64,000 bases of DNA from Antedon mediterranea (Eukaryota; Animalia; Echinodermata), in contig NC_092677.1 of the NCBI RefSeq assembly GCF_964355755.1, positions 828,101 through 892,100 of the forward strand. Reading direction: 5' to 3'. This document shows positions 6,591 through 55,519 of this stretch, in pieces. Both the position numbers and the translations under genes were made by a program. Numbering within the stretch: the stretch's first letter is position 1; each line of letters starts with the position of its first letter. Below the pieces are notes generated by a model that saw only the letters and a list, made by a program, of their open reading frames with translations, had not been told where the DNA came from and ran no database searches.

Positions 6591-8019
6591 TTGTCAAGAG
6601 TTGTCAAAACAACAATGCAATATATATTTTTTATTAAATGATTTGCATAAAATCAATAATTAAATATCAAAATAGAATTTAATATGATTGGTTTTTTTTT
6701 CATGAAAACACAACCTTTGGTCCAGGCTCAGATTGCGAGTGTGACCTTCACAAAAAGTTGTATACTTCCTAATCTATGGTGGCGCCGCATCGGATGGACA
6801 ATCAGAGCCATATGCTTTGTGGACAATATTACTGGTACAGGAAAAACCGCTTGTGATTATTATATATTTTGGTACATACCACCTCCATATATCACTTGAT
6901 GACGTCATGATACCAGATAGACAACATGAATTCATATCTACAATTCAACAACTTCCATATTAAATTTTAATCATTTGGGTCACTTTTCATTCCGATGAGA
7001 TCTAAACAGATTAAAATATACTCTAATAGATAAAATTAAGCAACTGATGTTATTCTAATTTTTTTTATGATGACGTAATGAAAATTAAAAAATGTTTAAC
7101 ATGTGAAGGAAAATTGATTTCTGTGGAACATTACATTTGTTTTTTCAATAGGAAGTTAGCGCACGATATAAATTAAACTTTTATGGTGAAAATGTGGTGA
7201 ATTGTGTCTGGGCCTAGGCCAACAGCATTTATGTTACTTTTGGCGACGATTGCGTGCCATATTAGTGAAGAACAACGTGGTTACACCTCCATGTTGGATT
7301 TGTAATAATTTATTATAGTATTGCTCCCGATATTGCTTCGCAATTTTATTTGTTAAAACGAACATATAGCCTATATTACAAAAAGTTTAAACACAATTGT
7401 GTTAAATATAATAGTAAGAAATAGGTAAGATATATTTTGCTTAATTTGGATTTTTGATTTGTAATATTTAATTGCTTTTGTGTTTGTCATCAACATGAAA
7501 TGGCCTAACTAAGATAGGCCTAGGCTAGTCGTATCCCGGATTACCTCTTCAGGAAGGCCTAGACCTAGCCTTGATTTAGCTGTACAGTACTGTAGTACTG
7601 TAGAGGCATAATGACGCTAGCTTAGTTCCACTTTGCATCTGGCTTATAATTATATATTAACTCCTAATTTGTTAACAAACTTTATCTTGAATACCATGCC
7701 TTAAAATTAACACCGGTATAATTATAGCCTACTACTGTACTACTAGTCTTAGTTTAGAGGTCTTAATAGCATTGTGTTAGCAAGGTGAGCCTGCTTTGTA
7801 AAGTTCTCTTCTATGCCTACTAGCCTAGGTAGGGGCTAGGCCTAGTTTTTAGTTGTATAAGTTCCTAAAGAGAAGAAACAACGACTCGTTGAACAAGCTT
7901 ACAGTAGCAAGTAGCCTGGGTTTAGGCTAGTCTATAGTCTAGTAAGTAGTAGTGTAGGTCAATTCAGTTCACTTTTTCACTTGTCTTATGTCATTAGCCT
8001 ATATATTTTTGTCTTGTAG

Positions 8020-8089
8020 TTGTTGGAAGAGATACAAGTACAGTAATAACATTATTGTTTCTACAGTACTTCATAATCTCTAGAATATT
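8020..8089 (+). other. Putative non-coding leader exon 2 of the transposase transcript (copy 1)
   Basis: Acceptor tttttgtcttgtag| and donor |gtaagt. Splice signals are conserved in copy 2 (34177-34226) and copy 3 (55403-55452). An upstream donor AAGAAATAG|gtaaga is conserved at 7425, 32809 and 54853 despite diverged flanks. Confidence 0.6.
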
Positions 8090-8159
8090 GTAAGTAGTGA
8101 ACATAAAATAAATAATTTGTAGAGATGATTTATGGTCTCGTGATTGGGAGAGAAGTGTT

Positions 8160-11100
8160 GCCTGTTATTTTGTAGGCATTTACTATTATGAAACATTTAC
8201 ATAATTCAGATTTTATTGTTTGTGATCAAACTATTAAATGAAATTACCATTGAGACAACACGTAGGCCCCAATCAGCCGACCCATACCCAAAGTCATTTT
8301 GAGGAAATTTCTTAATTTTTCAGACATTGATTAAGAAGCTTGTTGATTTGGAAAAAGTGTTAATGTTGTTTATTACCATTATCAACGTTTTTCCTTGTTT
8401 TTTTTAGATTGTAGAAAATATACAGTTTTAGCTACAGCTGTGAGTATCAGTAGATTATTTGTTAAACGGAGAAAACATATTTTCCTTACTTTGTGAACTG
8501 TTGCCTGCCCTAATCAGTCGTCTCATACCCAAAGTCATTTTGAGGAAATTTCTTAATTTTTCAGACATTGATTAAGAAGCTTGTTGATTTGGAAAAAGTG
8601 TTAATGTTGTTTATTGCCATTATCAATGTTTTTCCTTGTTTTTTTTTAGATTGTAGAAAATATACAGTTTCAGCTACAGCTGTGAGTATCAGTAGATTAT
8701 CTGTTAAACGGAGAAAACATATTTTCCTTACTTTGTGAACTGTTGCCTGTTATTTTGTAGGCATTTTATATTATGAAACATTTACATAATTCAGATTTTA
8801 TGGTTTGTGAATAAGATATTAAATGAAAGTAGTATTGAGACAACATGTAGACCCCAATCAGCCGGCCCATACCCAAAGTTATTTTGAAGAAATTTTTAAA
8901 TTTTTCAGACATTGATTAAGAAGCATGTTGATTTAGCAAAAGGGTTAATGTTGATTATTGTCATTATCAATGTTTTTCCTTGTTGTTTTTAGATTGTAGA
9001 AAATATACAGTGTTAGCTACAGCTGTGAGTAGATTATTTGTTAAACGGAGAAAACATATTTTCCTTACTTTGTGAACAGTTGCCTGTTATTTTGTAGACA
9101 TTTTCTATTATGAAACATTTACATCATTCAGATTTTATGGTTTGTGAATAAAATATTAAATGAAATTAGCATTGAGACAACATGTAGGCCCCAATTAGCC
9201 GACCCATACCCAAAGTCATTTTGAGGAAATTTCTTAATTTTTCAGACATTGATTAAGAAGCTTGTTGATTTGGAAAAAGTGTTAATGTTGTTTATTGCCA
9301 ATTATTAATGTTTTTCCTTGTTTTTTTTTTTAGATTGTAGAAAATATACAGCGTCAGCTACAGCTGTGAGTATTAGTAGATTATCTGTTAAACAGAGAAA
9401 ACATATTTTCCTTACTTTGTGAACTGTTGCCTGTTATTTTGTAGGCATTTTCTATTATGAAACATTTACATCATTCAGATTTTATGATTTGTGAATAAAA
9501 TATTAAATGAAATTAGCATTGAGACAACATTTAGGCCCCAATTAGCCGACCCATGCCCAAAGTCATTTTGAGGAAATTTCTTAATTTTTCAGACATTGAT
9601 TAAGAAGCTTGTTGATTTGGAAAAAGTGTTAATGTTGTTTATTACCATTATCAATGTTTTTCCTTGTTTTTTTTAGATTGTAGAAAATATACAGTTTTAG
9701 CTACAGCTGTGAGTATCAGTAGATTATTTGTTAAACGGAGAAAACATATTTTCCTTACTTTGTGAACTGTTGCCTGCCCTAATCAGTCGTCTCATACCCA
9801 AAGTCATTTTGAGGAAATTTCTTAATTTTTCAGACATTGATTAAGAAGCTTGTTGATTTGGAAAAAGTGTTAATGTTGTTTATTGCCATTATCAATGTTT
9901 TTCCTTGTTTTTTTTTAGATTGTAGAAAATATACAGTTTCAGCTACAGCTGTGAGTATCAGTAGATTATCTGTTAAACGGAGAAAACATATTTTCCTTAC
10001 TTTGTGAACTGTTGCCTGTTATTTTGTAGACATTTTCTATTATGAAACATTTACGTAATTCAGATTTTATTGTTTGTGATCAAACAATTAAATGAAATTA
10101 CCATTGAGACAACATGTAGGCCGCAATCAGCCGGCCCATACCCAAAGTCATTTTGAGGAAATTTCCTAATTTTTTAGACATTGATTAAGAAGCATGTTGA
10201 TTTGGAAAAAGTGTTAATGTTGTTTAGTGCCATTATCAATGTTTTTCCTTGTTTTTTTTAGATTGTAGAAAATTAACAGTTTCAGCTACAGCTGTGAGTA
10301 TTAGTAGATTATCTGTTAAACGGAGAAAACATATTTTCCTTACTTTGTGAACTGTTGCCTGTTATTTTGTAGGCGTTTTATATTATGAAACATTTACATA
10401 ATTCAGATTTTATGGTTTGTGAATAAAATATTAAATGAAATTAGTATTGAGACAACATGTAGACCCCAATCAGCCGGCCCATACCCAAAGTTATTTTGAG
10501 GAAATTTCTTAATTTTTCAGACATTGATTAAGAAGCATGTTGATTTAGGAAAAGGGTTAATGTTGTTTATTGCCATTATCAATGTTTTTCCTTGTTGTTT
10601 TTAGATTGTAGAAAATATACAGTGTTAGCTACAGCTGTGAGTATTAGTAGATTATCTGTTAAACGGAGAAAACATATTTTCCTTACTTTGTGAACAGTTG
10701 CCTGTTATTTTGTAGACATTTTCTATTATGAAACATTTACATCATTCAGATTTTATGGTTTGTGAATAAAATATTAAATGAAATTAGCATTGAGACAACA
10801 TTTAGGCCCCAATTAGCCGACCCATGCCCAAAGTCATTTTGAGGAAATTTCTTAATTTTTCAGACATTGATTAAGAAGCTTGTTGATTTGGAAAAAGTGT
10901 TAATGTTGTTTATTACCATTATCAACGTTTTTCCTTGTTTTTTTTAGATTGTAGAAAATATACAGTTTTAGCTACAGCTGTGAGTATCAGTAGATTATTT
11001 GTTAAACGGAGAAAACATATTTTCCTTACTTTGTGAACTGTTGCCTGTTATTTTGTAGGCATTTTATATTATGAAACATTTACATAATTCAGATTTTATG

Positions 11101-12600
11101 GTTTGTGAATAAAATATTAAATGAAATTAGCATTGAGACAACATGTAGGCCCTAACCAGCCGTCCCATACCTAAAGTCATTTTGAGGAAATTTCTTAATT
11201 TTTCAGACCTCGATTAAGAAGCATGTTGATTTGGAAAAGTGTTAATGTTGTTTATTGCCAATTATTAATGTTTTTTCTTGTTTTTTTTTTAGATTGTAGA
11301 AAATATACAGTGTCAGCTACAGCTGTGAGTATTAGTAGATTATCTGTTAAACGGAGAAAACATATTTTCTTTACTTTGTGAACCGTTGCCTGTTATTTTG
11401 TAGGCATTTTCTATTATGTAATATTCACATCATTCAGATTTTATGGTTTGTGAATAAAATATTAAATGAAATTAGCATTGAGACAACATGTAGGCCGCAA
11501 TCAGCCGGCCCATACCCAAAGTCATTTTGAGGAAATTTCCTAATTTTTCAGACATTGATTAAGAAGCATGTTGATTTGGAAAAAGTGTTAATGTTGTTTA
11601 GTGCCATTATCAATGTTTTTCCTTGTTTTTTTTAGATTGTAGAAAATTAACAGTTTCAGCTACAGCTGTGAGTATTAGTAGATTATTTGTTAAATGGAGA
11701 AAACATATTTTCCTTACTTTGTGAACTGTTGCCTGTTATTTTGTAGGCGTTTTATATTATGAAACATTTACATAATTCAGATTTTATGGTTTGTGAATAA
11801 GATATTAAATGAAAGTAGTATTGAGACAACATGTAGACCCCAATCAGCCGGCCCATACCCAAGGTTTTTTTGAGGAAATTTTTTAATTTTCAGACATTGA
11901 TTAAGAAGCATGTTGATTTAGCAAAAGGGTTAATGTTGTTTATTGCCATTATCAATGTTTTTCCTTGTTGTTTTTAGATTGTAGAAAATATACAGTGTTA
12001 GCTACAGCTGTGAGTATTAGTAGATTATCTGTTAAACGGAGAAAACATATTTTCCTTACTTTGTGAACAGTTGCCTGTTATTTTGTAGGCATTTTCTATT
12101 ATGAAACATTTATGGCATTCAGATTTTATGGTTTGTGAATAAAATATTAAATGAAATTAGCATAGAGACAACATGTAGGCCCTAACCAGCTGTCTCATAC
12201 TCAAAGTCATTTTGAGGAATTTCTTAATTTTTCAGACATTGATTAAGAAGCATGTTGATTTGGAAAAAGTGTTAATGTTGTTTATTGCCAATTATTAATG
12301 TTTTTCCTTGTTTTTTTGTTTTAGATTGTAGAACATATACAGTGTCAGCTACAGCTGTGAGTATTAGTAGATTATCTGTTAAACGGATAAAACATATTTT
12401 CTTTAGTTTGTGAACCGTTGGCATTGATTAAGAAGCATGTTGATTTTGAAAAAGTGTTAATGTTGTTTATTTGCCATTATTAATGATTTTCCTTTTATTT
12501 TTTAGATTGTAGTTGTACAGAAAATATACAGTGTCAGTTACAGCTGTGAGTATTAGAAAATTATCTGTAAAACGGAAAAAACATATTTTCCTTACTTTAT
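8160..12600 (+). repeat. ~343-bp tandem array (copy 1) with 14 micro-exon-like cores
   Basis: TACAGCTGTGAG core at about 8431, 8672, 9017, 9358, 9701, 9942, 10286, 10629, 10971, 11315, 11659, 12001, 12347 and 12538. Two units are ~241-bp deletion variants. Confidence 0.95.
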
Positions 12601-13195
12601 GCCCTCCCTTAATTGATAAACATGGGTTGTTTGTAAATTTACTATACTGAGTGACCAAATATTTTTGTGTATAAAATTCTATTTTATTAGAACATTGAAT
12701 AATTAAACCTATTTTCAGATTAATTTTGAAGGTGAAATTTTTATGAAAGAATTTGTTTCCGACACATTCCATGTAATGAAGTTTTGACATATTTTTAGGT
12801 CAAAATATCTTCTATAGTGATTTATTTATATTGTATAAACCAAAGTCACAAATATATTATCACCGTTTACTTCAAAATTTGGGACAATCATCCTTTTTAA
12901 CATAAATGTGGTGGTCAGTTTCTCCAGACATAAATTTGCAATTTTATAAAATGGGTCTCTATCCTAAATTTAGTAGTGAGTTGGTCCTAATTTGTTTTGC
13001 TAGGCCCAATAGATCATGTTACATTCCACAAGGGGGATATGTATATTATTATTTAGGTATTTGTAAAAACACTGATTTATCTACTGATTCAATTTATAAT
13101 TGTTTGACTGGAATTCTTAGTACTGTACCGTGTATCTTAAAATTAATAACTAACTCTTTTTTTTTTTCTTTTATTGTAGGTGACTGTCTTATATA

Positions 13196-13271
13196 AACCC
13201 ACTGGATCTCAGAAGAGATCCGGGTCTTTAGAAAAAGATCCACTCTCCAAAGAGAGTTTCTACGAGGGGTT
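13196..13271 (+). promoter_or_regulatory. Structured element of three abutting tetraloop hairpins at the start of the putative last exon
   Basis: GGATCTC-agaa-GAGATCC, GGGTCTTT-agaa-AAAGATCC, ACTCTC-caaa-GAGAGT with no spacers, just after acceptor ttttattgtag|G (13180). Conserved at ~36775-36851 and ~58700-58775. Confidence 0.6.
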
Positions 13272-13340
13272 ACCGAATTTTAATATTTATGCACAATTTC
13301 TTTTTAAACATTTTTTAAAAGTATCTTTAAAACATTCAGT

Positions 13341-13580
13341 AAAACCTTGAAGTAAACAAAAGTTTATTACAAACCATTTTTGCAAAAGCAAAATTGTAAA
13401 ACCTTGAAGATAACAGAAGTTAATCACAAGGAAACAACTAATAAACAAAAGTTTATTACAAAACCATTTTTGCAAAAGCAAAAGTGTAAAACCTTGAAGA
13501 TAACAGAAGTTAATCACAAGGAAACAACTAATAAACAAAAGTTTATTACAAAACCATTTTTGCAAAAGCAAAAGTGTAAA
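13341..13580 (+). repeat. 90-bp tandem repeat in the putative 5'UTR (copy 1, ~2.7 units)
   Basis: ACCTTGAAGATAACAGAAGTTAATCAC at 13401 and 13491. Confidence 0.9.
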
Positions 13581-14080
13581 GTTAAAGTTTGATTATACAA
13601 ACAAAAGTTTGAAGAATAAAACAGAAGCTTATTATAAAGAAATAAATATTAAACAGAGTTTATTACAAAAGAATTAATTAAAGAAGATTTAAAGATCACT
13701 TATATTTGAATCTGTTATTAAGTAGAATTGTAAAAAGAATAAAAATTAGAATCTGAAACTATTTAGCATAACCAAGTATTAAAGAGAAGTTTAAAATAAT
13801 ATTTATAATAATATTAAATAGTATTTCATCAAGCCAATATTAAGCAGAAGCTAATTTTTATATTCAGTGAAATTGTATAATTGAACTCATCATAGAAATC
13901 ATAGAAACAAAAGACAATATAAAATTGAATTGTTTTTGGAATTTTAATAATTTATTTTGTTTTAGCAAGGATTTCTTGAAAGAACCTAATTGTAATATTC
14001 ATTGGAATTGCAGAATACAAAGTTTATTAATTTGAAGAAATTTGTAGATTTGTTTCTTATACAAATTTTGAATAATTGTT

Positions 14081-17000
14081 ATGGAATTCATAGCAGTAGT
14101 TGGTATCTTTTTGTTGATTATCTTTACAATGATAATTTATTTGTGTAAGAATGTGAATAAAGAAGTTACAAGTAAAAAGCAGATTTTTGTCAATACAACT
14201 GGTAATGTTAATAATGGAGTTATGGATAAGACAGCAGAATTTAAAATAGTTGTTAATGACATCTTGGACCTACTTGATGAATGCTGTTCAACTGAGAATG
14301 TCAAAGACGACAGAAATGATGATACAGGTAATGTCAATTGTGAATTTATGAAAGATACAACTGAATTTAAAGGAATAATTGATGATATCATAAACATATT
14401 ATCTTATAGTACAGAGGTCACTTCAGAGTTTGATGATACATGCATTTTCTGTAATATTGAAGTGAAAGTAGACGACAATTGCATAACATGTGACCGTTGT
14501 AGTCAAAATTTTCATGTGAAATGTGTAAGAGATGTGTTTGAAGACAAACTATGTAATTCCCGGGTAATTTGGATTTGTTCAATGTGTGGGAATAGTAATT
14601 TTGTTGATAACATGTTGGGTGAAATAGGTATTCCCTGTCATTTCAATAGATATACGATTCTAGAACCTGATGAATCTGTCACTTCAGACTTTCCAGAATT
14701 AACGAAAAATAAAGAAAAACGTTGTAATAATGCAAAATTAAAATGTCAACAAACAGCAAGTGAAGATTTACTTGGTAGTGATTGGATGAGAGTAAGATCA
14801 AAGAAAAGAACCGACAACAGAAAAAAAAGATGTAAAAATAGAGGAAATAAGAAAAGGAGAAAGCACGTTATAAATGGTATAAGCATAGAACCAGGTGTAA
14901 AATATATTGGCAAAGGTGTAAAAGATTTCTATGTAAGACGAAATAATAACAAAATGGAATGGAATACAAATACTTACAGAGAATACAACAAAGAAAATGG
15001 TAAAACGAATGTATTGGGAAATTCACAAACAATAATTGACGACAGTGGTAGGCCTATGTGTGATGTTTTGAAAAATACAAAAGTAACAAACGGAATACAA
15101 CAACAATCAGGTGGTGGTTCGAAACGTTTACGAAATAACAAAGGTCGTTTTGTCAAAACTAAGAAGATTGATAACAAAAAAGCACAAGGTAATGTGAATT
15201 TAAAGAATGATTGCGATATTATGAAAGATATAAAGAACATGGGTAATAATGACAATTCTGAAACGAAAACTGACGAGGATTTTAAACTGGAATGTACTGT
15301 AGAAAACGACAACACAGCGACTGACGATGCGAAAGCACAAAATAATAGCAAAATGAATGACAGAAGTAGAATAATTGATAGTAATGGTACAGATCATAAA
15401 AATCAAACATGTGCAAGTTGTGAATTTGAGGAAAATGAAGTATTGATAATTGATGACGGATGCAAAAAAGCAATGACTAAAAAAATTAGGTCCCATACTA
15501 AACCTAAATGTGACCAACATACTATCGATGTGGATATTGAAGTTTTAACAAAAAATAATTTTTTGGAAGAATTGATAATCGATGATGTACCAAAACAAAA
15601 AAATACACCAAAAAGGCAGAAAACACAATCAATAAATGAATTACAAGTATATAATAGTAATGAAAATATAACTGTAGCACAGGGTAATTTTAATCAAGGG
15701 AATTATAGATTTGGCTTTGCAAGTGGTAAACAGTGTGTTGCAAATAGTCTTGTAGCTATTCTTTATTCTACAAAGAGGAATGGAAATGAATTTTACACCA
15801 AAGACCTTGATACAATATTGACTCTTGGAAACGAGTTGTACCGTTACATTCAGAAAGATTCCACTATGCACGAGGACCTTTTAATGATTTCTGAACTGCC
15901 GAAAGAATTGGATATCTTGGATAACACATTTGTAATATCTCCCAAAGAATCAGTTTTTGGCATAATAGATGGGAATCTCGAATTTATGGCTGAATATGGA
16001 GCCTTGTCATTAAACCAAGCTCTTGAACAAGAATTACATCAACATGATGCATTTTTTATGAATTTCAACAGAAGCACATTTTCTATTATCAAACGTGTAA
16101 ATGGATTTCTTATATTTGACCCACATGCAAGAGATCGATTTGGTTGTGTTAGTGAACATGGAAAGAGTATTTTACTTTACAGTCCATCTTGGCAAGGTGT
16201 GTACGATTATTGTATAAGATTAGCAAGTTCAATGAACTGTAATATACATGAAACAGAGTTTGAACTGACTGGTGTAAATATTGAAAATAAGTCTATGATG
16301 TTATGTTCCGCTTCTGTGCTCGATGATAATTGTGAACAAATCAACTTGGGAAATGTCGATGTTGATGAACCTAGTACCTCTTATCAGTATAAATGTAGTA
16401 CAAGATTACCAGACAAGAATATTGATTCTAACGTTAAAGGCAAAAAACATAATAAAGAAGGTCATGTCTCATCAAGTAATGGATGGCAAAGTGATAGTGA
16501 TATTGAAATTGTAAATGTTCAGTATGAAGAAAGACCTGACAAGAATTTTAAATTTATTCCTATCTCAGAAGCACAAAAGAAAAACATGTGTAATGAAGTA
16601 GGCATTCATTGTGAACATACCGATATGAATTGTGGTATTAACAGAGCTAGTCAGATTGGACATCCTCTTCAAATTACGAATATTACAGGTGATGGTAATT
16701 GTTTTTATCGTGCAATTTCATACATTATTTCTGGTACTGAAGATAATCATTTACTTTTAAGAAGAGCAATTACTAATCATTTATTGGAAACTGGTGACTT
16801 GTTTATTAATACATTTAGTCACGAATATAGATCAGTTAAGGAATATGTGTTTAACAAAAGAGTAATGGATAATGGAACGTGGGCATCCAATACTGAAATA
16901 AGTGCAATGGCAAACTTGCTTAATACAGATATTTATTCATTTAATGATCAACTTTTGACGTGGCAATTGTTTTCTGCTAAAAAGCCGGGAAGAATAGATG

Positions 17001-20000
17001 ATGTTACAACTGACAATGGCATATATATTTTGTACACCATGAATGTGCATTTTAATGTAGTGGAATCTGTCAATGTCAGTCAAAATCATTTTCAAGAAAC
17101 AACAGGACAAGTTGATATGGATGTGACATCCCAAAAGAATTATACAACACAGAAACGAAAGCAAATGAGAAAAGAATGTCACACATTTGAAGACATAGAA
17201 CCAAAACACAAAAAGAGTAAAACTGTTGAGGGACCTTGTTCTGGAAATGAATTAAAAACATTGAGAAGGAAAAGAAAAATATCTTATGAAAATAGAAAGC
17301 AAAAAGAAAAGAATCGTCAGAGAATAAACAGAAGAAGAGAAAAAAAAGATAATTCAATAGAAAAAAATGAAAATAGAAACAAATATCAAAGTGATCCTGC
17401 ATACAGAGAAGAAAAGAAACGTAAAGTAAAAAAGGCACAACAAATAAGATATGCTGATGATGATTATAAATTCAAAAAAAGGAAGGAAAATAGAGAAAGA
17501 CAACACAAAATGTATAGATGTGAACCTGAATATAATGTTAAGGTACGAAATAAAGCTAAACATAACTACAATATTGATTTGGATTACCGAACAACCAAAA
17601 AAGAAACAATGAAGAACATATACAACAATGATACAATGTTTAGACATAAAACTATACAAAATAATACACAAAGAAATAAGGAAAGGTATCACAATGATCC
17701 ACAATTTCGACAAAATTTGAAGCAAAATTTAGCACAGAAGTATTGTACTAATTCGCAATTCAGAGAAAACATTACCCAAAAATTGACAGAGAAGTATCAA
17801 AGTAATTTTAAATTTAGACAAAACTGTAAAGAAAAATTTGTTAAAAAGTATCGGACTAATTTGAAATTTAGACAAAAATGGAAAGACAAATTGGCAGAAA
17901 AGTATCGGAGTAATTTGAAATTTAGACAAAACTGTAAAGAAAAATTGGCTAAAAAGTATCGGAGTAATTTGAAATTTAGACAAAACTGTAAAGAAAAATT
18001 TGCTGAAAAGTATCAGAGTAATTTGGAATTTAGACAAAACTTTAAAGACAAACTGGTAGAAAAGTATCGGAGTAATTTAAAATTTAGAAGAAAATGCAAA
18101 GACAAATTGGCAGAAAAGTATCGGAGTAATTTGAAATTTAGACAAAAATGCAAAGACAAATTGGCAGAAAAGTATCGGAGTAATTTGAAATTTAGACAAA
18201 AATGCAAAGACAAATTGGCAGAAAAGTATCGGAGTAATTTGGAATTTAGACGAAACTGTAAGCAGAAATTGGCAGAGAAATATCGAGGGAATTCAAAATT
18301 TCGTCAAAGATGTAAGCAAAGATTTACAAAAAAGTATCATGGTGATGAAGGGTTCCGGAAAAAAATCATGAAGAAAAATATGAAAAATCGGGAAAAAATC
18401 AAAACAGAAAACACTAATTTTAATATTGTTTTAGAAAACTTCAAGAAAACAGTTTCTCGTGGTCCTGAATATGTTTGTTGTGTATGCTTTAAATTGTTAT
18501 TCAAAGATCAAGTTATGAAGTGCATCAAAGCTAAATACAAAAATCAGACTTGTATAAATGAAAAGTATTTGCATATTTGCAATAATGAATGCAATAAACC
18601 TTGTCAATTTGTCGAGTCACCAAGGTGTCATTTATGGATTTGTTTCACATGCCACAGGAAAATGCTAAAAGGGAAAGTTCCTGCAGAAGCTAATTCAAAC
18701 AATTTACAACTATATGATATTCCTCCTGAGCTCAGGTGTTTAAATAATTTAGAGCAGCATTTGATTGGATTAAACATTCCTTTTATGAAATTAATTAATT
18801 TACCAAAAGGTGGACAGCATGGAATACATGGACCAGTCGTATGTGTACCATCAAATACTATTGAAACTGTAAAAATGTTGCCTAGACCACAGGTTGATGA
18901 TCAATTAATTTCCGTAAAATTGAAGCGAAAGTTGTCTTACAAAGGTTATTACAAATATAAATTTGTTAACACTGCCAATGTTGTTCAAGCTCTTAGATAT
19001 TTACAAGATCATAACAAGTGCTATTTTGATATAGCTATTAATGAAGAATGGCATAATTATTTATCGGAAGAAAACATCGAAAATGCAAATACTAAGGTAC
19101 ATGAAAATCAAACATGTGTAGAAAACAATGAAGAAGATGAGGAAGAAGTAGAAGACCGATTGTGTGGTGCTATCTTTGATACAAGTCTCCAACCTGTTGA
19201 CAGGCGACAAAACTTGGTTGATGAATATTTTAATGACATAATTTGTTGTGCACCATGTGAAAATAATAGCCCTATTGCATTATTAAGTAATAAAAGCAAT
19301 GAAGCAAAATCATTTCCAGTGTTATTTCCAACAGGCCAACCAACATTCCATGATACGAGAGATGTTAAAATTACACTCGGACGTTATTTTCATAATAGAT
19401 TAATGCATATAGATAACAGGTTTGCACAAAATACAGAATTCATATTTTATGCTCAATCTTTATATGAACTTCAACAAATTTTATCAAGTATTTCCATTGC
19501 ATTGCGAAAAGGGTCAAGTAAAAAGGATGATTATAGCAAAGTTACTGTATCCGATTTAAAAAATGTTACCAAAATTGAGGAAATTTTAAAATCTGATAGG
19601 GGTTATAAATTTTTAAAACAAATTCGTGGAACTCCACCGTACTGGCAAGCTACACAGAAAGATATAATAGCAATGGTTAGACAGATTGGAAAGCCAACAT
19701 TCTTTCTTTCATTTTCAAGTGCTGACTTCCGTTGGAATGAAATAATGACGACATTGTTAAGTCAATCAGGAGACCAAAGAAACATTGAAGAATTGGAATG
19801 GGCAGATAAATGTAATTTGTTGAAATCAAATCCAGTGACTGTTGCCAGAATGTTTGACAAACGCTTTCATACTTTTTTGAAAAATGTAATTTTGTCTGAA
19901 GCACAGCCTATTGGTAAAGTCATAGATTATTTTTACCGAATTGAATTTCAAATGAGAGGAAGTCCGCACGTTCATATGTTAGTATGGGTTGAAAATGCTC

Positions 20001-23000
20001 CTATTTTTGGTACAGATAAAGATAAAGAAGTTATTAATTTTGTTGATAAATATATTTCTTGTGCTGTGCCATGTGAAACTGTAGATTCTGAACTAAATGA
20101 AATTGTTAAAAGTGTGCAAATTCACAGTAAAAGACATTCTAAATCATGTAAAAAAAGGGAACAAACTGCAGATTTAACTTCCCCAGACAACCTTCTGGAA
20201 ATACATTTGTTATGAGACCTACAATTGTGGATAAAGACAATGATGATAATGATGACAATAAACAAGCAATGGAGCTATTAACCTCAGTAAAAGATGCTGT
20301 GACTAATGAAGAAACATATAAAAATGCAATAGAACTTTTTCAAAGTTTAGGTATTACACAGAGTGCATTTGAGAAAGCAAATAATTGTGTAGCTACTGAG
20401 GAAAAGATTGTTATAAAGAGAAATCCTCAAGATGTGTGGGTAAATCAATATAATCCTTCCTTATTGAGAGCATGGAATGCTAATATGGATATTCAATATA
20501 TTACAAATGTATATGCATGTATTATTTACGTTATAGGATATATGTCTAAATCTGAACGGGAAATGGGCTTACTTTTATCTCATGCGGCATCAGAAGTGAA
20601 AGAAGGCAATGAAGATGCTAGACAAAGTTTGCGAAAACTTGGTAATGTTTATATGAATAACCGAGAAGTGTCTGCACAAGAAAGTATTTATCGTGTTTGT
20701 AGTTTAAGATTAAAAGAATGTTCAAGAAAAGTTGAATTTATCCCAGTAGGACCTAATCCTGTCAGAATGAGTTTACCACTAAGTGTAATTAAAAACAAAG
20801 CAGATGATGATGTAAGTGCATGGTTGCCAAATAAGATCGACAAATATAAAGCTCGACCTAATAGTTCTGAATTTAATAAAATGTGCCTTGCAAAATTTTG
20901 TTCAGAATATAGAATATTGAGTTCATCAGAAATGAAAGGAAACAAACAAAAAAAGAATGTATTTCAGTTAAAAAAACAGTTGGGATTCATCCAAAAAAGA
21001 ACACGAACTAGTAATGCTATAGTAAGATACCCTCGATTTCCAATGGATACAGCACCTGAGAAATATTTTTTGAGTATACTTCAGTTATTTCTACCATTTC
21101 GAAAAGATGAACAGTTAAAACCTCCAAATTTTGAAACGTACGAACAATTTCATGAGGAAGGATGTGTGAAATTATGTGGCTGTCAATTACAAACGGTAAA
21201 GTCAATAGTTCATGGAAACAGGGAACAATATGAAAAAAGTGCTGATGATGTTGAAGAAGCTCAGGAATGTTTATCAAAATTTGGACCACAAGAAGATGCA
21301 TGGAGCCTATTATGTCCAGAAAGTGAAAAAGAAAGGTTAGACAACCCAAAGCCAAATGTAGAGGTTGATGATGAAGAAGATGAATTTTTCATTCCAGATT
21401 TTGGAATTCAAAAAAATCATACATCTAAAGTAGAGTCTAATTCATCTAATATTCCAAGACCAGAATTGAACAAAATGATTCGATCTTTAAATGAAAAACA
21501 ACAACATATATTTTATAAGACAAGACAATGGTGTTTAGACAAAGTTAATGGTAAAAAACCTGAAGCATTTTACACTTTCATAACTGGAGGCGCTGGTACA
21601 GGAAAAAGTCATTTGGTAAATTGTATTTATAATGAAGCGACACGTATTCTGGGAAAAATTATGGAAAATCCCGATGATTTGTCAATATTGAAATTAGCTC
21701 CTACGGGAATCGCAGCATATAATATTAAAGGCCAAACAATTCATAGCGCTTTGTCTATTCCGATTAATATTTCACTTCCGTATCAACCACTTGGAGAAGA
21801 AAAAATAAGTGCACTTCGTAATCAGTTGCGTCAGTTGCAAATTGTTATTATAGATGAAATATCAATGGTAAATCAAAGGTTACTTTGGTATATTCACGGA
21901 CGATTAAGGCAAATAAAACAAGTACGCAACGATAGTCCATTTGGTAACATTTCAGTAATTGCTGTTGGTGATTTTTATCAGTTACCCCCAGTGATGGGCA
22001 GTTCGTTATATAAAGACACATTGGAAAGCTCACTGTGGTTAGATAACTTTAAGCAAGTACAGTTAGACCAAATCATGAGACAAAAAGAAGATAAAGAATT
22101 TGCTTTATTGTTAAACAAATTGCGTACAAAAGAAAAACATGATTGTTTGTGTGATAACGATTTATTTGTTTTAAAATCACGTGAAACAGGTGAAGAATGT
22201 GAAGATGCTGTTCATATTTACCCACGCAATAAACAAGTTGATGAATGGAATAAAAAAATGTTGCACAAAATCTGTACAGACATTGTATGCATTGAAGCAG
22301 AAGATAGTGTAGTAAACGCCAAGAAACAGAGCAAAATTTGTGACAAACCTCGGAATTCACGTCAAACTAGTTTACTAAATTATTTGTGGATTGCACTTAA
22401 TGCCAGAGTGATGTTGATTAAAAATGTAGATGTTAAAAAAGGCTTAACGAATGGATGTATGGGACATGTTTATGAAATAGTCAAACCCAATAATAACGCC
22501 AAACCAGTATCTATTAAAGTAAAGTTTGATAATAATGAAATCGATGTTCAGGCAATTGAAATGTTTAAAGAATCTATGGGGAATAAATATAGTCGAAAAC
22601 AATTTCCTCTCAAATTAGCATATGCATGCACAGTTCATAAAGTCCAAGGATTGACAATGAATGAAGCAGTAGTTTGCCTTAAAAATACCTTTGCACCTGG
22701 ACAAGCATACGTAGCCCTCAGTCGTGTTACTTCAATATCTGGACTTACTATTGAACATCTTAATCCTAATCTGATTTATTGTGATCCAAACATAAAGAAA
22801 TGCCTAAATAATATGGATTCATATGTACAATGTGAAAAACAAGGTCATGATTCGGATTCTAAATTTTCAATAATGTTACATAATATTCAAGGACTTAAGC
22901 AACATTTTGCTGATCTTCAGTGCAATGATTTGTTTATGAATTCTAGTATCATATGTCTGACTGAAACGTGGTTGAATAAAGATGACGATGTTTTTGAAGT

Positions 23001-23517
23001 AAATATTCAGCCGTATAAATTGTATCACCAAGCAAGGTATGATTCGTATTCTAATAGAAATGATTTGAGTTCCAAATTGAAAAATCAGGCTCATGGCGGC
23101 GTTGCAGTGTATACCAAAAACACGTTTTCAAGCAGATTAAACATACCTAATTATGATATAGAAGCAGTTTCATTTTTAATAACAAGTCCAATTTCAGTTT
23201 CCGTGTCAGTAATTTATCGACCCCCAAGCTATGATATTAATCAATTCTGTCAAAATTTGAGAAAATATTTGGAAGAGTTAAAAAAATTGAGTACAAAATG
23301 TATTGTAATGGGTGATTTTAACGAAAATCTTTTCAAACAATCTTCCAGAGTGAATAATTTAATGTCAGAGAATGAATACCGACAACATGTTACATGTTCC
23401 ACCACTGAAAACAATACATTGATTGATCATGTTTATAGCAAAGGTCTTGATTCAGTACAGGCTGAAGTAATTCCAATTTATTATAGCTATCATGAAGCCA
23501 TTCAAATTAAATTTTAA
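14081..23517 (+). pseudogene. Helentron Rep-helicase-endonuclease polyprotein, split by a 1-nt deletion into ORFs 14081-20215 and 20212-23517
   Basis: Near-identical to the 3072-aa ORF of copy 2. It has A7 at ~20150-20156 where copy 2 has A8. The break separates the HUH motif (RGSPHVH) from the Rep tyrosine motif (YVIGYMSK). Could be a homopolymer assembly error. Confidence 0.88.
17738..18360 (+). repeat. In-frame 54-bp (18-aa) coding repeat KYRSNLKFRQKCKDKLAE, ~12 units
   Basis: Direct reading of the translation and DNA (AGTATCGGAG at 17901 and 17955). Confidence 0.95.
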
Positions 23518-26500: not shown

Positions 26501-27012
26501 TGCGCTACGTGCGCATGCGCGCGTACAAAATTTGCGCACGCATGGAAAATTTTGAAATGCTCAAAATGACCTGAAACGCGTAGAAAGTTGATTAGAAATT
26601 GATTTTTCGCGTTTTGAAATTTTAAACGCGCGTGCGCGCGTAACTTTCTCTTAAACATGCCATTTTTAATCCATAGAAAGTTTGCGCATAATATGACTTA
26701 AAGTTTCACCAAGTTTCAATACAAAATTACTTTTGGTTTTTAATCTATGATCAATCATTGAAATTCATAAAATCGCGCGTACCTTACGCTGCGCAACTCG
26801 GACGGGACCGAAAACCTTATTACGACATTTTCAGATAGAGGTCAATCTTCTGATAAAGTTATACAATGTTATATTAAGAAGATTTAGAGATACACGCGCA
26901 ACAAAATTCTGGGAAAGAAAGAAGAAAAAAGAAAAAAAAGAAAAAAAATAAAAAAAAAAAAAAAAAGATCCTGACAATAACAAGGGGTTATCCGCCAAGT
27001 GCGGATAACCAA

Positions 27013-29384: not shown

Positions 29385-29386
29385 AA

Positions 29387-30531: not shown

Positions 30532-32456
30532 CTAGATTTGAACTCGTCACTTTGACGAGTTAGTTATCCGCACGACAAACGCCACGCGCACGTCATACGT
30601 TGGAATTTTGCACACGGAAAAAGATTATGGCTGTCATATTATTGATGTTGTGATTCTCTGTGTTTAGAGAAGGATGCTTTAGACCAGGTCCGCCTTATTA
30701 TTAGCCAATCAAAATCGTATAATTTTTAGAGGGAAAATGTTATCCTCCTTTGAAGCCTAAAATTTGCATATCCAGTATAAAAGTAGAATGTAATAGATAT
30801 TAGAGGAGAAGAGAGAATAAGATCAGAGTAGATAAACGGAAAGATGATAAAGAAAATAAGGCTTGACTGGTACAGTGGTAGAAAGATGTATTAATCGAGT
30901 TACAAGGAATAAAAGTTCTAGTTGAGTTAAATATACTTTTTGTATGAGTTATCATTCAGTGACAGTGTACGTCGCGTGGAGTTATATATATACGCCTGAG
31001 AAAGCTCGGAACCAACTAAAATAAATTCACTACAATGGCATTATGACCTGAATTTAAGAATATTATATGCTGTTAGTGCTGAATTCTGTCAATTTTGTGT
31101 CATATAGTATATACAGTGCAAACGGTATAATCTGTATACATGTTACATACAGTGTAGAATAGGTGAAATTACGGGACCCCCGTTTATTCCTATTTTTAAC
31201 ATGGCGACGGTATCAAAATGAAACACTAAGATAGCAATTTGAGAAGGAAATTATTTCAGTAACAACATATTAACGTGCAGAAGAAATTTGAATACGTGAA
31301 ATATTGATGCTTGCTCTTTTAAATGTAATGAATTATGACGCAAAAGATGAAAATACAAGTTTTTTTATTTAACTGGCCATATGATGACGTCACAACATCC
31401 GATTTGCAACATTTTCTCATGATTTCGTATCTACAATCCAATAGCTTCCAGAAAACGTTTTAATCGTGATTATCACATTTTATTTGTACGAGCTATAACA
31501 GATTAACATTTACTGTAAAGATGAAATTAATGGCACACGTAATTTAAATGTTTAGGCATGATGACGTCATACAAATTAAAATATTTTTAACTCATGCGAA
31601 GGATAGTTGATTGACCTAGACAATATCGAAATCGGGGTGAAAATGGAAAACGGATAAGTGGAGATGCGCTCTATTAAATGTGATGCGCTATGACAAAAGA
31701 GACAAAATCCCTATATTTTATATTCGAGTGGCCATACGATGACGTCACATAGTCCAGTTAGCCATATTAATGCATGATCCGATATCTGCAACTCATCAAC
31801 TTCCAGAATATGTAATAACAATAATTTTCACCGTTTAGTTGAGAAGCTACGACGGTTTAAAAAAATGCATCATTTTGACGAATTTTTGAACTTTTTCATA
31901 AAAAACGCGCGCAAATTATCCAATTCGACGTGCTCGTATGACGTAATTTTAAGCCGAAATTGTTTAAAAGTTGGTAAAAGTACTGAAAAAGGCTGGAAAA
32001 ACATAAATCATGCGGAAAAAGTATGTTATCAACGCTACGTGCGCACCGCGCGCGTAAAAAATTGCGCGCGCGTGGTAATTTTTGACATGCTCAAAATTAC
32101 ATGAAACGCGTAGAAAGTTGATTAGAAATTATTTTTTCGCATTTTAAAATTTTAAACGCACGTGCGCGCGTAACTTTGTGTAAAACATGTCATTTTTAGT
32201 GCACAAAAAGTTAGCGCAAGATATAAATTAAACTTTTGCTGAGTTTCAATTTAAATTGTTATATGGTTTTCGATCTATGTTAAATAGGCGAAATTCATAA
32301 AATCGCGCGTAAGTCACGTTGCGCATTTCTGACGTCATTCACAAAAGTGGCTGCACGACTTCACGTAAATGCGCACATGTTGACAAAGTTATAAAATGTT
32401 AGCTTTACACGTTTTAGAGATAAGCTCTGCACAAAAATGACAGAAAGAAAGAAGAA
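30532..32456. mobile_element. Longer divergent non-autonomous Helentron D (~1.9 kb), right end missing
   Basis: Variant left end CTAGATTTGAACTCGTC-acttt-GACGAGTT-AGTTATCCGC. 31560-32456 is homologous to the HINE body; the front part carries extra sequence. Confidence 0.8.
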
Positions 32457-33173
32457 CTAGATTTGAACTCGTCACTGCGGACGAGTTAGGTTATCCGCGA
32501 AAACGCAACGTCTAATATACACGTATAATACATAGGTCTGACGTGAAAACTAATTTTCGTTATTCGTTACATATTGGTAATTTTGGCGAGGATTGCATGC
32601 CATACTGTAGGTGAACTGAATTTCGAGAAAATTCAACAACTAAACGTGTTGTGTTGTGGTATGTCGTTGGTAAACTCCATGTTGGATTTTAAGAGTCGTT
32701 CTCTGATAATACTGTTACAAATACCATTTTATGTCGTCGAACTTCAACGATTAAATAAATAAATAACAAACTCAAGTTTGTTTAGAATTGATATACTATA
32801 AGAAATAGGTAAGAAATTATGTGGATTGTTTGATTTGTAGTTGTTTTGTAATTGCTACTTACTAACGTAACCCTAGCCTACTATAGATATAGAGTAGAGG
32901 CCTGCTGTGTTTGTATACACCGTACGGAAGAAGGATGTCTGTAGTTTCAGAGATGGCAAACGTCGTGACGTTTTTCAGCCCGATGGCTTTCGTAGCAGCA
33001 CGACATTCGTGTATGGCCATGTATGTGTATGTTAAATACGGTCCCGGTAAATATACGAACAAATATGTCTGGTACACAGTGTACCTAGGCCTAGCCTGTA
33101 CAAGAGCACTTGTTGTTTTTAGTAGGACTAAACGGCGCTAGTTCCCTTTTTGCACATGGGATGGCTTATATAT

Positions 33174-33947: not shown

Positions 33948-34289
33948 TATATTAACTCTAGCTTAATTTTTAGTTGTATAAATTCTTAAAGAGAAGAAAC
34001 AATGATTCGTGCTTCTTACAATAGCATGTTGTCTATAGGCTTACGCTAGTCCAGTAGTCCTAGTAGTAGTGTAGGTCAGCGCAGTTCCCTTTCGCACCTG
34101 TCATTGTTACAAATATTGTGGCTGTGATCACAATTTGTATTGATATTTATAATAATAATATATTTTTGTCTTGTAGCTGTTGGAAGAGATACACAATTGT
34201 CTCTACTTTAGTATCTCTAGAATATCGTAAGTAGTGTATATAAAATAAATAGTTTGTAGAGATGATTAATGGTTTCATGATAGGGAGTG

Positions 34290-36005
34290 AACTGTTGACA
34301 GTTATTTTGTAGGCATTTTCTATTATGAAACATTTACATAATTCAGATTTTATTGTTGGTGAATAAAATAAAATGAAATTAGCATTGAGACAACATGTAG
34401 GCCCCAATCAGCCGTTTCATACCCAAAGTCATTTTGAGGAAATTTCTTCATTTTTCAGTCATTGATTAAGAAGCATGTTGATTTGGAAAAAGTGTTAATG
34501 TTGTTTATTACCATTATTAATGTTTTTCCTTGTTTTTTTTAAGATTGTAGAAAATATAGTGTCAGCTACAGCTGTGTGAGTATTAGTAAATTATCTGTTA
34601 ACAAAGGGAAAACATATTTTCCTTACTTTGTGAACTGTTGCCTGTTATTTTGTAGGCATTTTCTATTATGAAACATTTACATAATTCAGATTTTATTTTT
34701 TGTGAATAAAATATTAAATGAAATTAGCATTGAGACAACATGTAGGCCCTAACCAGCCGTCTTATACCCAACGTCATTTTGAGGAAATTTCTTAATTTTT
34801 CAGACCTCGATTAAGAAGCATGTTGATTTGGAAAAAGTGTTAATGTTGTTTATTACCATTATTAATGTTTTTCCTTGTTTTTTTTAAGATTGTAGAAAAT
34901 ATAGTATCAGCTACAGCTGTGTGAGTATTAGTAGATTATCTGTTAACAAAGGAAAAACATATTTTCCTTACTTTGTGAACTGTTGCCTGTTATTTTGTAG
35001 GCATTTTCTATTATGAAACATTTACATAATTCAGATTTTATTTTTTGTGAATAAAATATTAAATAAAATTAGCATTGAGACAACATGTAGGCCCTAACCA
35101 GCCGTCTCATACCCAAAGTCTATTTGAGAAATTTCTTAATTTTTCAGACATTGATTAAGAAGCATGTTGATTTGGAAAAAGTGTTAATGTTGTTTATTGT
35201 CAATTATTAATGTTTTTCCTTGTTTTTTTTTTAGATTGATAGAACATATACAGTGTCAGCTACAGCTGTGAGTATTAGTAGATTATCTGTTAAACGGATA
35301 AAACTTATTTTCTTTACTTTGTGCCTGTTATTTTGTAGGCATTTTCTATTATGAAACATTTACATAATTCAGATTTTATGGTTTGTGAATAAAATATTAA
35401 ATGAAATTAGCATTGAGACAACATGTAGGCCCTAATCAGCTGTCTCATACCCAAAGTCATTTTGAGGAAATTTCTTAATTTTTCAGACATTGATTAAGAA
35501 ACTTGTTGATTTTAAAAAAGTGTTAATGTTGTTTATTGTCGTTAATAATGTTTTTCCTTGTTTTTTTTAGATTGTAGAAAATATACAGTGTCAGCTACAG
35601 CTGTGAGTATTAGTAGATTATCTGTTAAACGGAGAAAACATATTTTCCTTACTTTGTGAACTGTTGCCTGTTATTTTGTAGGCATTTTCTATTATGAAAC
35701 ATTTACATAATTCTATTCTAATTTTATTGTTTGTGAATAAGATATTAAATGAAATTAGTATTGAGAAAACATGTAGACCCCAATCAACCGGCCCATACCT
35801 AAAGTCATTTTGAGGAAATTTCTTAATTTTTAGATTAAGAAGCATGTTGATTTTGAAAAAGTGTTAATGTTGTTTATTGCCATTATTAATGATTTTCCTT
35901 TTATTTTTTAGATTGTAGTTGTACAGAAAATATACAGTGTCAGTTACAGCTGTGAGTATTAGAAAATTATCTGTAAAACGGAAAAAACAGATTTTCCTTA
36001 CTTGA
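34290..36005 (+). repeat. ~343-bp micro-exon array (copy 2), 5 cores
   Basis: Cores at about 34563, 34910, 35260, 35594 and 35943. Confidence 0.93.
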
Positions 36006-37566: not shown

Positions 37567-40500
37567 ATGGATATGGAATTCATAGCAGTAGTTGGTATCT
37601 TTTTGTTGATTATCTTTACAATGATAATTTATTTGTGTAAGAATGTGAATAAAGAAGTTACAAGTAAAAAGCAGATTTTTGTCAATACAACTGGTAATGT
37701 TAATAATGGAGTTATGGATAAGACAGCAGAATTTAAAATAGTTGTTAATGACATCTTGGACCTACTTGATGAATGCTGTTCAACTGAGAATGTCAAAGAC
37801 GACAGAAATGATGATACAGGTAATGTCAATTGTGAATTTATGAAAGATACAACTGAATTTAAAGGAATAATTGATGATATCATAAACATATTATCTTATG
37901 GTACAGAGGTCACTTCAGAGTTTAATGATACATGCGATTTCTGTAATATTGAAGTGAAAGTAGACGACAATTGCATAACATGTGACCGTTGTAGTCAATA
38001 TTTTCATGTGAAATGTGTAAGAGATGTTTTTGAAGACAAACTATGTAATTCCAGGGTAATTTGGATTTGTTCAATGTGTGGGAATAGTAATTTTGTTGAT
38101 AACATGTTGGGTGAAATAGGTATTCCCTGTCATTTCAATAGATATACGATTTTAGAACCTGATGAATCTGTCACTGCAGACTTTACAGAATTAACGAAAA
38201 ATAAAGAAAAACGTTGTAATAATGCCAAATTAAAATGTCAACAAAGAGGAAGTGAAGATTTACTTGGTAGTGATTGGATGAGGGTAAGATCAAAGAAAAG
38301 AAACGACAACAGAAAAAAAAGATGTAAAAATAGAGGAAATAAGAAAAGGAGAAAGCGGGTTATAAATGGTATAAGTATAGAACCAGGTGTAAAATATATT
38401 GGTAAAGGTGTAAAAGATTTCTATGAAAGACGAAATAATAACAAAATGGAATGGAATACGAATACTTGCAGAGAATACAACAAAGAAAATGGTAAAACGA
38501 ATGTATTGGGAAATTCACAAACAATAATTGACGACAGTGGTAGGCCTATGTGTGATGTTTTGAAAAATACAAAAGTAACACACGGTATACAACAACAATC
38601 AGGTGGTGGTTCGAAACGTTTACGAAATAACAAGGGTCGTTTTGTCAAAACTAAGAAGATTGATAACAAAAAAGCACAAGGTAATGTGGACCTGAATTTA
38701 AAGAATGATTGCGATACTATGGAACGGTTTGGCAAAGATATAAAGAACATGGGTAATAATGACAATTCTGAAACGAAAACTGACGAGGATTTTAAAATGA
38801 AATGTACTGTAGAAAACGACAACACAGCGACTGACGATGCGAAAGCACAAAATAATAGCAAAATGAATGACAGAAGTAGAATAATTGATAGTAATGTTAC
38901 AGATCATAAAAATCAATGTGCAAGTTGTGAATTTGAGGAAAATGAAGTATTGATAATTGATGACGGATGCAAAAAAGAAGTGGCTGAAAAAATTAGGTCC
39001 CATACTAAACCTAAATGTGACCAACATACTATCGATGTGGATATTGAAGTTTTAACAACAATTAATTTTTCGGAAGAATTGATAATCGATGATGTACCAA
39101 AACAACAAAATACACGAAAAAGGCAGAAAATACAATCAATAAATGAATTACAAGTATATAATAGTAATGAGAATATAACTGTAGCACAGGGTAATTTTAA
39201 TCAAGGGAATTATAGATTTGGCTTTGCAAGTGGTAAACAGTGTGTTGCAAATAGTCTTGTAGCTATTCTTTATTCTACAAAGAGGAATGGAAATGAATTT
39301 TACACCAAAGACCTTGATACAATATTGACTCTTGGAAACGAGTTGTACCGTTACATTCAGAAAGATTCCACTATGCACGAGGACCTTTTAATGATTTCTG
39401 AACTGCCGAAAGAATTGGATATCTTGGATAACACATTTGTAATATCTCCCAAAGAATCAGTTTTTGGCATAATAGATGGGAATCTCGAATTTATGGCTGA
39501 ATATGGAGCCTTGTCATTAAACCAAGCACTTGAACAAGAATTACACCAACATGATGCATTTTTTATGAATTTTAACAGAAGCACATTTTCTATTATTAAA
39601 CGTGTAAATGGTTTCCTTATATTTGATCCACATGCAAGAGATCGATTTGGTTGTGTTAGTGAGCATGGAAAGAGTATTTTACTTTACAGTACATCTTGGC
39701 AAGGTGTTTACGACTATTGTATAAGATTAGCAAGGTCAATGAACTGTAATTTACATGACACCGAGTTTGAACTGACTGGTGTAAATATTGAAAATAAGTC
39801 TATGATTTTATGTTCCGCTTCTGTGCTTGATGATAATTGTGAACAAAGCAACTTGGGAAATGCCGATGTTGATGAACCTAGTACGTCTTATCAGTATAAA
39901 TGTAGTACAAGATTACCAGAAAAGAATATTGATTCTAATGTTAAAGGCCAAAAACATAATAAAGAAGGTCATGTCTCATCAAGTAATGGATGGCAAAGTG
40001 ATAGTGATATTGAAATCGTTAATGTTCAGTATGGAGAAAGACCTGACAAGAATTTTAAATTTATTCCGATCTCAGAAGCACAAAAGAAAAACATGTGTAA
40101 TGAAGTAGGCATTCATTGTGAATATACCGATATGAATTGTGGTATTAACAGAGCTAGTCAGATTGGACATCCTCTTCAAATTACGAATATTACAGGTGAT
40201 GGTAATTGTTTTTATCGTGCAATTTCATACATTATTTCTGGTACTGAAGATAATCATTTTCTTTTAAGAAGAGCAATTACTAATCATTTATTGGAGACTG
40301 GTGACTTGTTTATTAATACATTTAGTCACGAATATAGATCAGTTAAGGAATATGTGTTTGAAAAAAGAGTAATGGATAATGGAACGTGGGCATCCAATAC
40401 TGAAATAAGTGCAATGGCAAACTTGCTTAATACAGATATTTATTCATTTAATGATCAACTTTTGACGTGGCAATTGTTTTCTGCTAAAAAGCCGGGAAGA

Positions 40501-54497: not shown

Positions 54498-55519
54498 CTA
54501 GATTTGAACTCGTCACTGCGGACGAGTTAGGTTATCCGCGAAAACGCAACGTCTAATAATATACACGTAGAATACATATAATAGGTCTGACGTGAAAACT
54601 AATTTTCGTTATTCGTTAAATATTGGTAATTTTGGCGAGGATTGCATGCCATACTGTAGGTGAACCGAATTTCGAGAAAATTCGACAACGTGTTGTGTTG
54701 TGGTATGTCGTTGGTAAACTCCATGTTGGTTTTTAAGAGTCGCTCTCTGATAATATTGTTACAAATACCATTTTATATCGTCGAACTTCAACGATTAAAT
54801 AAATAAATAACAAACTCAAGTTTGTTGAGAATTGATATACTATAAGAAATAGGTAAGAAATTATGTGGATTGTTTGATTTGTAGTTGTTTTGTAATTGCT
54901 ACTTACTAACGATACCCTAGCCTACTATAGATATACGGAAGGATGTCAGACTTTCAGAGACGGCCGGCAAACGTCGTGACGTTTTTCAGCCCGATGGCTT
55001 TCGTAGCAGCACGACAATCGTGTATGGCCATGTGTATGTTAAATACGGTCCCGGTAAATACGAACAAATATGTCTGCTACATTCATAGTGTACCTAGGCC
55101 TAGCCTGTACAAGAATACTTGCTGTTTTTAGTAGGACTAAACGGCGCTAGTTCCCTTTTGCACCTGGCTTATATTATATTAACTCTAGCTTAATTTTTAG
55201 TTGTATAAATTCTTAAAGAGAAGAAACAATGACTCGTTCTTCTTACAATAGCATGTTGTCTAGGCTTACTCCAGTAGTCCTAGTAGTAGTGACGTAGGTC
55301 AGCGCAGTTCCCTTTCGCACCTGTCATTGTTACAAATATTGTGGATGTTTTGATCACAATTTGTATTGATATTTATAATAATAATATATTTTTGTCTTGT
55401 AGCTGTTGGAAGAGATACACAATTGTTTCTACTTTAGTATCTCTAGAATATTGTAAGTAGTGTATATTAAATAAATAGTTTGTAGAGATGATTAATGGTT
55501 TCATGATTGGGAGTGAACT

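Follow-up and report, generated by a model that had tools for sequence, protein, structure and literature searches.

Three head-to-tail copies of one large Helentron (HLE2) lie in the window studied here, a 64-kb stretch (64,000 nucleotides in all) from the echinoderm Antedon mediterranea, and each copy carries, ahead of its transposase open reading frame (ORF), a tandem array in which an intron-like body alternates with a very short core bounded by splice-site motifs (Table 1). These cores are likely to be spliced mini-exons in the untranslated leader of the transposase message. In the protein encoded by copy 2, a domain search finds Herpes_teg_N, OTU, DUF6570, Helitron_like_N, PIF1 and endonuclease domains, so that Rep and the Pif1 helicase share one ORF (Helitron_like_N, E 1e-36; PIF1, E 8e-29) with a C-terminal apurinic-type endonuclease (Exo_endo_phos, amino acids 2863-3050, above the cut-off). 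DUF6570, Herpes_teg_N and OTU, all three present in copy 2, are given as markers for HLE2/Helentron (PMC11417382). The intact 9-kb ORF described in an earlier note, which was made from the letters of this DNA alone, exists in copy 2 but not in copy 1, where it is split at a run of seven A residues that is A8 at the same site in copy 2. The ratio of nonsynonymous to synonymous substitution (dN/dS) between these two ORFs is 0.29 over 1121 codons, which suggests that the Helentron family was coding until recently. Eighteen relatives were found, of which the best four show 96-97% identity across the searched region and carry the source name Antedon mediterranea.

The earlier note had interpreted the satellite as a series of 32-nt non-coding micro-exons, with 14, 5 and 8 cores in the three copies. 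Those counts are reproduced by the splice cassette and, identically, by an intron landmark that is independent of the splice sites, which implies that no unit lacking the sites was overlooked. AG before the core and GTGAGT after it are found in all 27 units, and in all 27 a polypyrimidine-AG acceptor and a GT donor surround a very short exon, as expected of a spliceosomal micro-exon; one alignment row in which the acceptor AG seemed variable proved to be an artefact of the 40-nt cores, and the anchored count of AG is again 27/27. A length of 32 nt holds less widely, for 23 of the 27 cores, with one core of 33 nt and three, the last in each copy, of 40 nt. Cores 1 and 2 of copy 2 have lost 2 nt and gained 2 nt and are still 32 nt long. 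When one unit was shuffled preserving dinucleotides, a cassette of polypyrimidine-AG and GTRAGT appeared in 2 of 3000 shuffles. Cores are indeed spared in the deletion units, which measure 242, 242, 240 and 189 bp from donor to donor (a uniform 241 bp had been proposed); each deletion would spare the cassette with a probability of 0.30-0.48, however, and for about three independent events the product is ~0.07, which is weak. A spliced-leader RNA gene typically has a short first exon with a donor only and an Sm site downstream. An array of such genes was rejected, as each core here has an acceptor and the intron tested contains no Sm-site pattern.

Table 1. Positions in the window of the arrays, predicted leader exons, ORFs and element ends.
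Feature	Position	Strand	Remarks
Copy 1 array	8152..12600	+	14 intron-plus-core units, ~343 bp, mean 93% identity, four-unit higher-order repeat
Copy 1 first core	8408..8439	+	32 nt
Copy 1 other cores (starts)	8650, 8993, 9334, 9677, 9919, 10262, 10605, 10948, 11293, 11636, 11978, 12325	+	
Copy 1 last core	12506..12545	+	40-nt variant; 40-nt last core in all three copies (copy 2 counterpart 35912)
Copy 2 array	34287..36003	+	5 cores, starting 34544, 34889, 35235, 35571, 35912
Copy 3 array	55513..58109	+	8 cores
Predicted leader exon 1, ATG-free part	7293..7424	+	donor common to copies 2 (32808) and 3 (54852); no junction seen
Predicted leader exon 2	8020..8089	+	70 nt, no ATG; 50 nt in copies 2 and 3
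ATG-depleted 5' part of last exon	13180..14080	+	1 ATG
Copy 1 RepHel-endonuclease ORF	14081..23517	+	split by a one-base difference, A run near 20155
Copy 2 ORF	37567..46785	+	intact, 3073 aa; only intact full-length ORF of the three copies
Copy 3 ORF	starts 59765		
Copy 1 right end	26985..27012	+	palindrome containing the short terminal inverted repeat
Copy 2 left end	32456..32498	+	CTAG, stem-loop, short terminal inverted repeat

The exon ahead of the array and the first base of the exon behind it stand where they had been placed, the final acceptor immediately preceding position 13180 in copy 1, 36759 in copy 2 and 58684 in copy 3. From this acceptor to the ORF, the exon runs for 0.8-1.1 kb and contains 1, 2 and 1 ATGs in the three copies against 11.3, 12.7 and 11.8 expected (0/1000 shuffles in each case). 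Among 42 trinucleotides in copy 1, ATG shows the strongest depletion in this segment, and neither antisense ATG nor the last introns show depletion. A mild shortfall of ATG is seen in the array itself (15/1000) and in flanking host DNA (2/1000), as against the roughly tenfold depletion in the exon. The unspliced leaders of copies 1, 2 and 3 would contain 89, 47 and 64 ATGs, the density in introns being ~20 per kb. Depletion in the exon together with 47-89 ATGs in the unspliced form suggests that this is likely to be a scanned 5' untranslated region (5'UTR) for which splicing is required. The scanned 5'UTR would measure at least 1.1-1.6 kb. Tuning of leader length by the array, as had been suggested, is possible, but the cores make up only 15-29% of the predicted leader. 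The longest stop-free run in the predicted joined leader is 43-108 codons, and there is no long frame. That the cores lack ATG is correct (0/27), but this is close to chance, 41-50% of shuffled cores also being ATG-free. The idea that exon 2 is an old paralogue of the core was examined by similarity, where the observed score is reached by 4/300 shuffles in copy 1 and 35/300 in copy 3.

Joined cores can be sought in public sequencing runs, five of which contain the copy 2 ORF region; none of the five is recorded as RNA, and that the most informative one, X1, is RNA is only a guess. Runs X1-X4 were aligned to 35620-38300, and X1 alone to 35520-37000 (80 records). In X1 a joint connects 35602 to 35912 at a depth of 86, and the 309 nt left out between them have GT..AG ends. 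At least three X1 contigs that begin at core base 35571 are preceded by the end of a core, and at least two that end at 35602 continue with the start of a standard core, the genomic letters at both of these borders being intron and not core; these loose-end signatures are 9-10 letters long and come from 6 of 16 such rows. Among the 16 possible 18-mers that join a core end to a core start, none occurs in the window DNA. Finally, in a 222-nt X1 contig the alignment begins at exactly 36759, immediately past the acceptor, with 19 unaligned letters ahead of it, and at this acceptor unspliced spanning contigs reach a depth of 35 and the exon-start contig 44. The junction contigs belong to the Helentron family and are not provably assignable to copy 1. 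The proposal of a multi-exon, spliced 5'UTR is supported by the X1 junction contigs and by the ATG depletion ahead of the ORF, the final junction, from a core to 13180, being predicted.

Taken together, we think it reasonably probable that the array consists of cis-spliced, non-coding 5'UTR micro-exons of the Helentron transposase mRNA, made by tandem duplication and kept because splicing removes it cheaply. Several points weigh against this. X1, its kind only a guess, also contains unspliced intron and exon-intron contigs. The short side of the joint has 20 letters, where sides below 30 call for caution, and what lies between is entered as 'between: not known'. The signatures are short and come from a single run, and as X2-X4 were aligned only from 35620, there is no matched DNA control; nor is a joint from 35951 to 36759 listed in either alignment, and the partner of the 36759 acceptor is unread. 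The three copies, moreover, are not independent, and the invariant splice sites, with opposite 2-nt changes that preserve 32 nt, give a hint of more constraint than drift would leave. Were the cores mostly skipped or confined to side transcripts, or the joined form simply DNA from elsewhere in the genome, the array would be an ordinary intronic satellite, and the uncertain kind of the runs, the short junction sides, the missing control and the unread partner are all compatible with this. We nevertheless regard it as improbable given three separate signatures that coincide exactly with the predicted borders and have GT..AG ends, and joined words that are absent from the window DNA; in X2, furthermore, the 8 contigs that have loose letters ahead of 35925 match the genomic sequence there (agreement 0.99), although this is not a matched test.

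If the array is spliced, it may be asked whether it is also selected. Variable columns amount to 12/32 in the cores and 75/189 in the intron body, and cores do not differ from all intron columns (P = 0.49). In the comparison of splice signals with the rest of the unit, proposed earlier as a check, eight splice positions (donor +1 to +6 and the AG) are invariant in 27/27 units, with a chance of ~0.018, while the intron also has three invariant runs of 9-12 columns. Units that stand four apart are the most alike, and one pair is 100% identical, which points to recent duplication of multi-unit blocks.

It is tempting to speculate that the 32-nt cassette is an expandable expression dial or shield, many 5' splicing events loading export or junction complexes or blocking nuclear small-RNA silencing, so that more units would place more splicing marks on the 10-kb exon, let it escape small-RNA or export surveillance in this invertebrate and yield more transposase. 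The intact splice sites of all 27 units and the 23 cores of 32 nt, two of them by way of opposite indels, would fit, as would a last exon that is ~10 kb long and 40% A. In C. elegans, silencing RNAs accumulated 5- to 6-fold more on a sensor with one intron than on one with three (PMC5554785), and introns shield reporters from HUSH (PMC8770142). We nonetheless consider such selection unlikely. Cores are no more conserved than introns, the sole intact full-length ORF is in the copy with the fewest units, the last exon is still ~10 kb long, and the leader already has two other predicted introns besides the last intron. HUSH has been traced back to cartilaginous fish, and long exons are marked by it even in intron-containing genes (PMC7619638); spliced stuffers gave no protection, as it is the intron itself and not splicing that protects, and short introns do little (PMC8770142); and in worms one 5' intron gives the full boost of three (PMC6591249). 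Among 46 distant relatives, most of them without upstream DNA, none showed an array of this kind. The earlier suggestion that dense splicing lets a long intronless ORF escape silencing finds no support here, with cores as variable as introns and protection attributed to the intron itself (PMC8770142); the adaptive reading of the array is unsupported, and a function of unit number is not shown.

The opposite effect, a brake, can also be envisaged, in which many introns and a long leader bearing an upstream ORF would yield partly spliced, untranslatable transcripts and little transposase. Any retained intron would add ATGs at the density given above, the last exon has an ATG at +110 in all three copies, and unspliced acceptor-spanning contigs (depth 35) stand alongside the exon-start contig (depth 44) in X1. 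The splice sites, however, are close to consensus rather than weak, the array-to-unique depth of X1 resembles that of X3, so that the unspliced contigs may come from DNA, and the remaining leader has been purged of ATG, which points to selection for translation; a brake seems to us improbable. Least plausible, and very improbable indeed, is that the array hosts small RNAs as C19MC does, the introns releasing small nucleolar RNAs (snoRNAs) or microRNAs (miRNAs) and the exons serving as spacers. The layout of repeated non-coding exons is that of C19MC (PMC6346411) and the introns are as conserved as the cores, but a comparison of 7000-14200 with Rfam gave no match up to E = 1, the intron fold has a z of -0.30 with no C or D box, and 100-160 bp of intron are deleted in several units. 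A small stem across the core-core junction was also considered and dropped, because the fold of joined cores is no better than that of concatemers of shuffled units (z -0.09 to -0.39).

The preferred model, that of cheaply removed 5'UTR micro-exons, would then work as follows. Transcription would start near the left end, and splicing would join exons 1 and 2 to n cores and a single ~10-kb exon. The array most probably originated from one leader intron and a short exon, duplicated repeatedly in tandem; tandem repeats inside Helentrons are known, and such duplication of internal repeats is frequent in these elements (PMC7492417; PMC4067079). As the introns hold dozens of ATGs, they would have to be removed, and as each added unit brings working splice sites, the mRNA would lengthen by only 32 ATG-free bases. 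Skipping of a core would cost nothing and retention of an intron would be harmful, so that selection would act on getting spliced and not on the sequence or number of the cores, and the array would be tolerated because splicing removes the introns. The number n may have changed through rolling-circle copying or unequal exchange.

Whether such leaders are general was approached through 46 metagenome loci (a search that returned 0 viral loci), with upstream DNA examined in 18 of the 46. Of 12 arrays with a period of at least 60 in the 46 loci, 0 had the cassette, and there was no blastn match to the leader; with more than 3 kb of upstream DNA in only six loci, this negative is weak. A 126-bp repeat in locus L013 was rejected as a leader array because it sits in a minus-strand ORF. 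In L013 and in L018, the stretch between an acceptor and the ORF is poor in ATG (0 in 328 nt and 1 in 341 nt, at sites chosen post hoc), and a sea-urchin relative has RefSeq isoforms with alternative first segments. A spliced leader may therefore be common in these elements, with the array seen only here. The RefSeq accessions of ten relatives include no UTR isoforms for Antedon proteins. At 14648-14649 (38140-38141 and 60338-60339 in the other copies), an AG marks the codon where the sea-urchin RefSeq isoforms X2-X5 join their alternative first segments; splicing at this AG would remove the hydrophobic start of the protein and a Cys-rich finger. That start is a strongly hydrophobic 19-residue stretch (hydropathy 2.97; 14084-14140 and 37576-37632) with which the transposase ORF opens, also present in relatives P0006-P0010 and possibly a membrane anchor or signal on the transposase; of these relatives, P0008-P0010 represent subfamilies with 76-78% identity.

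Further variation was observed within the copies. An upstream ATG in the last exon, at +110 or +111 in the three copies (13289, 36869 and 58793), opens an upstream ORF of 5 or 9 codons (9 in copy 1). The ATG-poor leader exon includes a second variable repeat, of 90 bp, with 2.5 copies at 13353-13580 and 4.1 at 58843-59206, and reduced in copy 2. Intron 1 of copy 2 has an insertion of ~785 bp (33168-33952), with 155-bp inverted ends that are 92% alike, which is absent from copy 3. Within the ORF, an in-frame 54-bp repeat encoding a basic stretch of 18 residues is present in ~12 copies at 17703-18338, ~6 at 41290-41632 and ~11 at 63384-63996. A 134-nt acceptor-donor cassette lies 3' of the stop codon (23681-23814 and 47250-47383), possibly part of a spliced 3' end or of a second transcript; in copy 2 it falls within a 397-bp duplication (46912-47654), in the other copy of which the sites are lost.

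The ends of the elements are distinctive as well. Each left end has CTAG, a stem-loop and a short inverted repeat, and each right end a palindrome with the partner repeat, the short terminal inverted repeat being 12 nt long with one mismatch (left 32457 and 54498; right 27010 and 50580). A left-end hairpin was looked for upstream of copy 1 and was not found. Read in the direction of the ORF, the stem-loop precedes the left repeat, an order that departs from the canonical HLE2 layout; an arrangement with the stem-loop upstream of the ORF has been described from Fusarium as HLE2-reverse (PMC11417382). Judged by its domains and ends, the element is a Helentron whose ends are reversed, in the HLE2-reverse layout, and is filed under HLE2; the layout occurs here in an animal element that carries an endonuclease domain. 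As regards the Helentron rule of insertion between T and T without target duplication, the ends are seen to abut A runs on the plus strand. Non-coding 1.15-kb elements with Helentron ends occupy the gaps between copies. They stand in tandem at 25823-32500 and 49398-54540, two of them (28164-29310 and 29385-30531) being 100% identical, and copies of the right-end palindrome are stacked with A runs between them at 50506-50929 and 52072-52201.

Helentrons, their internal repeats and repeated non-coding exons are all known; for an array of likely spliced micro-exons in a transposon leader, no precedent was found in a literature search whose scope excluded most subscription papers and supplements. 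Internal repeats of Helentrons are treated as passive satellite cargo that can seed satellite DNA, whereas the present one, an exon-intron unit in the leader of the transposase, appears to be transcribed and spliced. Such an array would offer a simple route by which genes acquire many 5'UTR introns, and it is a warning that repeat-masked satellites may be exonic. With 5, 8 and 14 units, the neighbouring copies form a natural dose series in which the number of 5' introns can be set against the degree to which a very long exon is expressed or silenced.

Among known systems, Helentron/HLE2 elements and their HINE derivatives are alike in Rep, helicase, endonuclease, OTU, DUF6570 and Herpes_teg_N, and also in short terminal inverted repeats, stem-loop, internal tandem repeats and tandem whole elements (PMC4067079, PMC11417382, PMC7492417); their central repeats, in the accessible text of these sources, are found in non-autonomous elements and are not described as exons. 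The present repeat, in contrast, is in the leader of a coding element and appears spliced. Systems in which introns protect a transcript (HUSH, PMC8770142, PMC7619638; EMB-4/HRDE-1, PMC5554785; the 5' intron effect, PMC6591249) resemble it in having 5' introns on an A-rich, very long and otherwise intronless exon, and differ in that HUSH is described for vertebrates and that one 5' intron is enough in the worm. The DAZ repeats, LPA KIV-2 and the micro-exon genes of Schistosoma are tandem exon-plus-intron units of variable number, coding and mostly frame-preserving, whereas the exons here are 32 nt long, ATG-free and joined into no long frame. The SNORD115/116 host arrays have repeated non-coding exons and introns, and their introns release snoRNAs. 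Similarly, the C19MC host transcript has many repeated non-coding exons between repeated introns (PMC6346411), but its introns carry miRNAs, of which none were found in the present array, and the transcript predicted here continues into a protein-coding exon.

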